Source: a virus (taxonomy: Duplodnaviria; Heunggongvirae; Uroviricota; Caudoviricetes). Taken from it: a DNA stretch of 7,189 nt. Position numbers: made by a program. Positions 6,001-7,189 of the stretch are shown here, piece after piece. The DNA lies in the IMG/VR virus record IMGVR_UViG_2713896777_000006. The stretch is one strand, 5' to 3'. Positions within the stretch are counted from its first letter, which is position 1. Every line of letters begins with the position of its first letter.

Positions 6001-7189
6001 GTGAGGTGACTTGTCGTCGATCGGAAGTGAGAGTATTGCGTCTATGGCGTTGTTTCTGATTGCTTCGTTGCGAAGCATGTATATTTGCTTCATTGTCACC
6101 TCAACTCACAAAACGCCACGCCATTTTTGCTACAGCGACAGGCGCAACACCGATAATCACCCACAGGAAAATGCTACCGAAAAGCACACCAACCAGGTCT
6201 TTACCTTCGCCTACCAGCCGGACAAAACTGCTGGCAACCACAATGAACGTCGCCACCATCCACATAGCACCGAGAATCCTCAATGCAGAAAAAATCAACT
6301 CAACCACGATTTACTCTCCCCCAAATAAAAAGGCCTGCGATTACCAGCAGGCCTGTTATTAGCTCAGTGATGTAGATGGTCATCTTTTAACTCCATATAC
6401 CGCCAATACCCGTTTCATCGCGGCACTCTGGCGACACTCCTTAAAAATTAGGTTCGTGCTCATCTTTCCTTCCCGTTCTTCCTTGGTAGCAAACCGGTAA
6501 TACACCGTTCGCCAGACCTTACCTTCGATAACCAGAAGACCTGCCCGTGCCATTTTAGCCGCGGCCTGATTTATGCTGGTTACTGTTGCGCCTGTTAGCG
6601 CGGCAACGTCCGGCGCACAGAAGCTATTATGCGTCCCCAGGTAATGAATAATTGCCTCTTTGCCCGTCATACACTTGCTCCTTTCAGTCCGAACTTAGCT
6701 TTGAGTTCTGCGATCTTCGCCAGAGCCTGTGCACGATTTAGAGGTCTACCGCCCATGACAGGAAGTTGTTTTACTGGTTCAGGGATCGCCTCACCACGGT
6801 TAATTCTCGCAGTCATATGGACAAGCTCATCTGCGGCCTTACGGCGTAATTCCGCATCAGTAAGCGCATTGGCCCGCATGTTCTGATACAGGTTGGTAAC
6901 CAGCCAGTAGTGCGCGTTTGATTTCCACGGATAAGACTCCGCATCCGGATACAGGCCTCGCTTCCGGCAATACTCGTAAACCATATCAACCAGCTCGCTG
7001 ACGTTTGGCAGTCCGGCGATAACGGATGCTTCTTCCCGGCACCATGCAACAAACTGCCCGGGTGATGGCAGAAATGGTCGATTCTGCCGACGGGCTACGC
7101 GCATTCCTGCGTTAACCTGTTCCATTGTGGTGATCCCGTTTTCCCGGAAAGCCAGAACCCACTGGCGGCGGATTTCGTTCAGTTCGTTC

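Follow-up and report, generated by a model that had tools for sequence, protein, structure and literature searches.

The window analysed here, a stretch of 7,189 nt from the caudoviricete IMG/VR record IMGVR_UViG_2713896777_000006, carries on its minus strand the gene order P, ren, ninA, a 68-codon open reading frame (ORF) and ninB (Table 1). This lambdoid prophage segment, shown against its direction of transcription, shares 99.7-99.8% identity over its whole length with prophages in the chromosomes of Shiga-toxin-producing E. coli, strains H19 and 97-3250 among them. Beyond ninB lie genes for a Dam methylase and NinE, a low-GC gene on the opposite strand, and genes for an HNH endonuclease, NinG and a NinI-type phosphatase.

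Table 1. Coordinates of genes and expression signals in the P to ninB part of the window.
Feature	Position	Strand	Basis and remarks
P, C-terminal part	6667..7125	-	
ren, 96 aa	6380..6670	-	phrog_142, Ren-like exclusion protein (E=3.6e-42); ~99% to lambda ren; RefSeq 'protein ren'
ninA, 27-codon ORF (MTIYITELITGLLVIAGLFIWGRVNRG)	6300..6383	-	phrog_5907 (E=1.3e-18); annotated NinA in HK620, HK630 and SPN9CC
tR2 intrinsic terminator	6321..6354	-	Hairpin 6354..6331 and U-tract 6330..6321; terminator scan, RNA fold
GGGGGAGAG, Shine-Dalgarno-like stretch in ninA 3' end	6314..6322	-	Read from sequence
68-codon ORF, GTG start	6101..6307	-	PHROG phrog_1165; predicted two-helix membrane protein; RefSeq WP_000229807.1
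ninB Shine-Dalgarno GAGG	6099..6102	-	On the TGA stop of the 68-codon ORF; 5 nt to ninB ATG; read from sequence
ninB (orf-family recombination mediator), 148 aa	5647..6093	-	Pfam NinB (E=7.6e-49); allele unlike lambda's; RefSeq coordinates agree with ATG at 6093

The opposite-strand gene, a 617-aa ORF at 2587-4440 (+) that RefSeq calls as 590 aa, runs against all of the nin genes and has a GC content of 34% compared to ~50% around it, with spacers at 2187-2586 and 4441-4943. It had no match in Pfam or PADLOC, matched phrog_9230 (function unknown) over its full length, and has the appearance of cargo of foreign origin that entered between the HNH endonuclease gene and ninE. In the low-GC spacer upstream of it, an AAATAG hexamer is repeated (2300-2352; 8.8 copies, 97% match), which could allow copy-number (phase) variation. 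The HNH endonuclease (1539-2186, minus strand), encoded between ninG and the low-GC insert, carries an AP2 DNA-binding domain and is reminiscent of homing endonucleases; it may have had a part in creating the insertion site. A run of 50 Ns at 1200-1249 splits ninG into two ORF fragments and reflects masking or an assembly gap, not biology.

In agreement with the original prediction, a GTG behind tR2 and GGGGGAGAG opens a hydrophobic ORF of 68 codons that reads from 6307 to 6101 directly 5' of ninB. Its TGA stop (6103..6101) leaves a gap of 7 nt to ninB, and the separate Shine-Dalgarno sequence proposed for ninB was found as GAGG overlapping this stop, with GAGG next to the ORF stop also in HK75 and mEpX1. 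The ORF is already annotated, the identical copy in E. coli H19 being a 207-nt hypothetical protein gene in RefSeq (WP_000229807.1), and it falls within a catalogued family of unknown function, phrog_1165, whose profile it matched from end to end (ORF residues 1-68 against profile positions 1-68 of 68, E=7.5e-37). Members of this family include HK75 gp43 (ADO67670), HK022_58, HK630_052, mEpX1_049, mEp213_058, SPN9CC_0027 and WP_000229807.1, with the window ORF representing its type-A allele. Literature searches by locus tags and accessions found no paper on the ORF, and broader searches returned only genome descriptions and a study of tR2 and NinA. In the HK630 (1326-1484) and mEp235 (1046-1204) records the gene is called as 52 codons from an internal ATG. 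These calls are probable start-site mis-annotations, judged too short because residues 1-16 are conserved and the ATG start of the Salmonella phage allele aligns exactly with the GTG of the window.

The terminator preceding the ORF is base for base that of lambda, with a hairpin of an 8-bp stem including six G-C pairs, followed by TTTTTATTT, that folds as predicted; terminator tR2 is annotated in HK620 and HK75. Passing through this hairpin is the reading frame of ninA, which the original prediction overlooked. The ninA ATG overlaps the ren stop (ATGA), and its TGA (6302..6300) lies within the first 8 nt of the 68-codon ORF (GTGGTTGA). Elsewhere, the ninA stop is likewise placed on the start of the next gene, as ATGA in lambda, GTGA in AU6Stx1 and ATGGTTAA in the Salmonella allele, and in P0133, a 93-aa database protein, NinA is fused to the product of the 68-codon ORF. 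We considered 'NinA' as the identity of the 68-codon ORF and rejected it, the name belonging to the overlapping ORF at 6383..6300 (phrog_5907), which has the features of a NinA gene, namely about 26-27 codons, a start on the ATGA of the preceding gene and a course across tR2; the 68-codon ORF lacks them. The label 'ninA' stands beside tblastn matches of the 68-codon ORF only because the two ORFs overlap. NinA is named among the lambda nin genes (PMC8022706), and its initiation site, credited to Kroger & Hobom 1982, is described as 'not weak' from a reporter with lambda tR2, in which translation from the NinA start lowered termination by only ~10% (PMC4824070). The lambda 'chain of interlinked genes' is also due to Kroger & Hobom 1982, as relayed by both papers (PMC4824070, PMC8022706).

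Recognition of ninA alters the account of how the ORF is likely to be translated. The idea that it borrows the ancestral ribosome-binding site of ninB stands insofar as the G-rich stretch preceding lambda ninB appears to be the one used, the GGAG core of GGGGGAGAG (6319..6316) lying 8 nt 5' of the GTG at 6307. The site is not ninB's own, however, because the same ninA end precedes ninB in lambda, the 68-codon ORF in the window and the unrelated gp29 in AU6Stx1; as read from the sequence, the "borrowed" site is the 3' end of the ninA coding sequence. Translation would most likely start at the GTG, either by initiation via this GGAG or by re-initiation of ribosomes that end at the ninA TGA 5 nt downstream.

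Compared to lambda, the window is ~99% identical from 7189 to 6314, the last shared base, after which nothing aligns. The lambda order is tR2-GGGGGAGAGGGAAGTC-ATG(ninB), which agrees with the original prediction of hairpin, G-rich stretch and ninB ATG without the ORF. The same prediction explained the difference as a simple, recent insertion of ~210 bp between tR2 and an ancestral lambda-type ninB, whereby the new gene took ninB's ribosome-binding site. Such an event would agree with the near-identity to lambda up to 6314, the ~210 extra bases before ninB and the GAGG that ninB owns beside the ORF stop. We nevertheless regard it as unlikely, and read 6314 as a mosaic breakpoint, or module boundary, rather than the edge of a 210-bp insertion, because the two sequences are unrelated beyond GGGGGAGAG and the downstream NinB proteins are only 46% identical. 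Also at odds with an insertion, the cassette at 6384..6084, which takes in ninA, tR2, the ORF and the start of ninB, matches HK75, HK629 and HK630 at 97.7% identity even though their flanks differ, the upstream gene being a DnaB-type helicase and not ren. A lambda-type GGGGGAGAGGGAAG directly precedes the ATG of the Salmonella allele, whose leader (GGGGGAGAGGGAAGC-ATG) is nearly that of lambda ninB.

The wider set of phages places the ORF as an old resident behind tR2, because three alleles with saturated synonymous divergence share that place in E. coli and Salmonella phages, which also speaks against insertion into an ancestral lambda arrangement; lambda is simply one among the phages without the gene. 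In 11 of the 11 phage copies examined, tR2 and the G-rich GGGGGAGAG lie immediately 5' of the ORF, and the tR2-ORF order is kept even in HK022, where a 203-aa gene stands between P and the hairpin. What follows the ninA end varies. AU6Stx1 shares ~98% identity with most of the window, yet lacks the ORF and has in its place the unrelated gp29, with its GTG over the ninA TGA, and two more genes before ninB; in HK022 and SPN9CC the slot holds the ORF and further genes. On these comparisons, the ninA end is a conserved joint and the space between ninA and ninB a variable cargo slot.

A tblastn search recovered 107 phage records with at least 80% of the ORF length at 43-98% identity, among them HK75, HK022, HK629, HK630, mEp235, mEpX1, mEp213 and HK620, together with many Stx2a phages and P22-like Salmonella phages. 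At least 80% of the window allele was present in 416 of 5426 complete E. coli genomes (~8%), and a further 123 E. coli genomes matched the 3' piece of the ORF only. Protein searches yielded ~200-235 clusters, nearly all exactly 68 aa in length and all unnamed. When 1.84 billion representatives were searched exhaustively with HMMER, only 25 relatives were recovered at E<=0.001, and the phrog_1165-type family is therefore narrow; its distant relatives, of 63-66 aa, also matched the phrog_1165 profile.

Comparison of nine intact phage copies resolved three allele types, all of 68 codons and with zero indels. Between allele types dS was 0.9-2.1 (saturated) and dN/dS 0.21-0.42 (Nei-Gojobori), while one close pair of copies gave an omega of ~0.9-1.2 on very few changes; purifying selection on these values is only moderate. 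Of 17 diverse members, at least 80% keep W16-M17, F21, G35, D37, W49, G53, P56-V57, K61 and W64, and distant members retain this same set, the aspartate as D37(-P), together with K/R10. Between type-A and type-B alleles, the last 63 nt (window 6101-6163, minus strand) are 90-100% identical and the first 144 nt are substitution-saturated, which suggests a recombination joint within the gene or DNA-level constraint near the ninB start.

Disrupted copies also occur. In H-19B (AF034975.3, 995-1201) the ORF is broken by a TGA at codon 15; Stx1a_11KH263 gave the same tblastn statistics as H-19B. In Salmonella phage 146851_sal5 (1001-1315), the reading frame shifts close to the C-terminus, and the ORF becomes part of a 104-aa fusion product. 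The comparisons show the gene to be dispensable, because lambda and AU6Stx1 are without it, H-19B has the nonsense codon and 146851_sal5 the frameshift. Breakage in close relatives had been named in advance as grounds for doubting the ORF. It was found in H-19B and 146851_sal5, as was replacement in AU6Stx1, but such copies demonstrate dispensability and not non-coding status.

Translation of the ORF itself can be weighed against the reading that it is untranslated, its DNA being conserved for some other reason or the antisense frame being the real gene. That reading draws on the unusual conservation of the last 63 nt between alleles and on the codon-aligned antisense frame, which has no stop in any of the nine phage copies. 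The antisense frame is open, however, because the sense frame is without TTA, CTA and TCA codons (zero among 8-13 Leu and Ser codons). Substitutions gather at sense third positions (23/19/35 differences on codon positions 1/2/3), and uncorrected pN/pS was 0.46-0.50 for the sense frame compared to 0.85-0.93 for the antisense; on this pattern the antisense frame was rejected as a real gene. Moreover, the 68-codon length and hydrophobic pattern outlast ~50% amino-acid divergence, and alleles with GTG and with ATG begin at the same conserved place. We judge an untranslated or antisense origin highly improbable and, by sequence comparison, the 68-codon ORF is a genuine, conserved gene under purifying selection. 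The antisense frame (6101-6307, plus strand; ORFs 6011-6328 and 6060-6362) displayed no protein-level constraint in its substitution pattern.

The predicted 68-aa product is strongly hydrophobic (GRAVY 1.53). The two membrane-spanning stretches proposed originally are supported by prediction, as Kyte-Doolittle peaks of 2.15 (residues 11-29) and 2.48 (residues 41-59) agree with an AlphaFold2 model (21-sequence alignment, mean pLDDT 89.8) in which a helical hairpin, with helices at residues 2-33 and 38-67, is predicted with high confidence. In 17 family members the two tails each carry a net positive charge and acidic residues are almost confined to the turn, which suggests, by the positive-inside rule alone, cytoplasmic termini and a periplasmic turn of 4-6 residues. 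Scans of the ORF against Pfam, NCBIfam and PADLOC assigned no family (PADLOC none at E<=1), nor did Pfam for eight distant homologues, and a profile search of PDB sequences gave nothing at E<=1; the ORF thus matched no known family of defence proteins, holins or toxins. A Foldseek search of BFVD with the model gave nothing better than E=0.8 and is uninformative because the matches were only generic helical hairpins.

The operon context bears on when such a protein would be made. In lambda, genes of the pR operon downstream of tR2 are delayed-early, dependent on N antitermination and repressed in lysogens. Because the 68-codon ORF lies beyond tR2 within the early rightward operon, its transcription is probably tied to N read-through, and we infer that it is delayed-early and N-dependent. 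Distant homologues likewise sit in early operons with little space between genes: one comes after O and a DnaC-like gene where a nin-like region begins, and others have RecT or a primase nearby. No terminator was found 5' of these distant homologues, and the association of the ORF with tR2 is therefore specific to the E. coli/Salmonella lineage.

A contrasting possibility is that the ORF is a prophage-expressed moron, a membrane factor with a toxin-like or superinfection-exclusion role that the lysogen would produce, in the manner of HK97 gp15. In favour of this, its product is small and predicted to have two membrane helices, and it occupies a cargo slot that varies among temperate phages; it is also common in prophages, with up to four copies per genome. 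Nevertheless, no sigma-70-like promoter was found on either strand at 5600-6800 (shuffle mean 1.0) by a scan for the strict sigma-70 consensus, which weak or non-canonical sites could escape, and no promoter-like site was found 5' of the distant homologues. The ORF is without a terminator of its own, overlaps ninA, lies 7 nt from ninB and does not have an atypical composition, its GC content of 49.8% equalling that of ren (50.5%) and ninB (50.6%). Its position in an operon silent in lysogens by established lambda biology, and the lack of a PADLOC profile match to known defence or superinfection-exclusion systems, weigh in the same direction, and a moron of this kind is improbable.

The best explanation, and probably the correct one, is that the ORF is a real accessory gene, carried by lambdoid phages and annotated before, that encodes a 68-residue helical-hairpin inner-membrane protein with delayed-early expression. 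It would form one link of an interlinked chain, ren-ninA-X-ninB, in the early rightward operon past tR2, transcribed only when N-modified polymerase passes tR2, so that the protein would appear in delayed-early lytic growth and the gene would be silent in a repressed prophage. Operon position, overlaps and mosaic joint can be read from the DNA, and the ninA/tR2 segment may be seen as a portable joint at which lambdoid phages swap cargo: ninB directly in lambda, the ORF in the window and three unrelated genes in AU6Stx1. As nearly the whole protein would be buried in the bilayer, it would most likely act through helix-helix contact with an inner-membrane protein of host or phage during lytic growth, for example as an early block to the entry of superinfecting DNA or another modulation of membrane function. 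Any role of the exclusion or anti-defence type is a tentative suggestion that we would not favour. Similarly doubtful is a broader proposal, in which phrog_1165 would constitute a distinct class of delayed-early effectors, buried in the inner membrane and binding a host transporter, channel or protease, with ninA/tR2 as a dedicated N-dependent and translationally coupled plug-in site. If true, such effectors could, for example, keep superinfecting DNA from entering or inactivate an abortive-infection system based in the membrane.

The main import of these results is for annotation: the 68-codon gene should be kept, its short calls corrected, and the gene kept apart from ninA. As many Stx-converting phages and ~8% of complete E. 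coli genomes carry this gene of unknown function, a phenotype would be of modest interest to phage biologists. The mosaic joint at ninA/tR2 appears to lend its terminator, ribosome-binding site and stop-start coupling to whichever gene follows. None of this will surprise specialists in lambdoid phages.

Several known systems invite comparison. T4 Imm and HK97 gp15 are small, mostly membrane-embedded phage exclusion proteins, of which T4 Imm is made early in lytic infection and HK97 gp15 is a prophage-expressed moron. The product of the 68-codon ORF is alike in being a small, predicted inner-membrane protein of a phage, with no detectable sequence or profile similarity to either in the Pfam and PADLOC scans, and, in contrast to the prophage-expressed HK97 gp15, no promoter was found for it. 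Class II holins (S21, S21-68) have ~68-71 aa and two transmembrane domains, and the shared size and two-helix hydrophobic architecture could indicate a holin or antiholin-like protein that times lysis. The ORF differs, however, in lying in an early operon beside replication and recombination genes in every context examined, distant homologues included, and never beside an endolysin in those contexts; none of the distant homologues examined is in a lysis cassette, which argues against a holin role. It also matched no holin family in Pfam or PHROGs and, with a tail of only 8 residues, is without a charged C-terminal tail of any length, leaving a function in lysis very unlikely. The other members of phrog_1165 share with the window ORF the length of 68 aa and the site straight after tR2, with nothing substantial differing. 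The lambda ren-ninA-ninB region has the same ren, 5' part of ninA, tR2 hairpin and GGGGGAGAG, and the same start-to-stop overlapping gene borders, but whereas ninA ends there as ATGA on ninB, in the window it ends as GTGGTTGA on the 68-codon ORF, followed by a divergent ninB.
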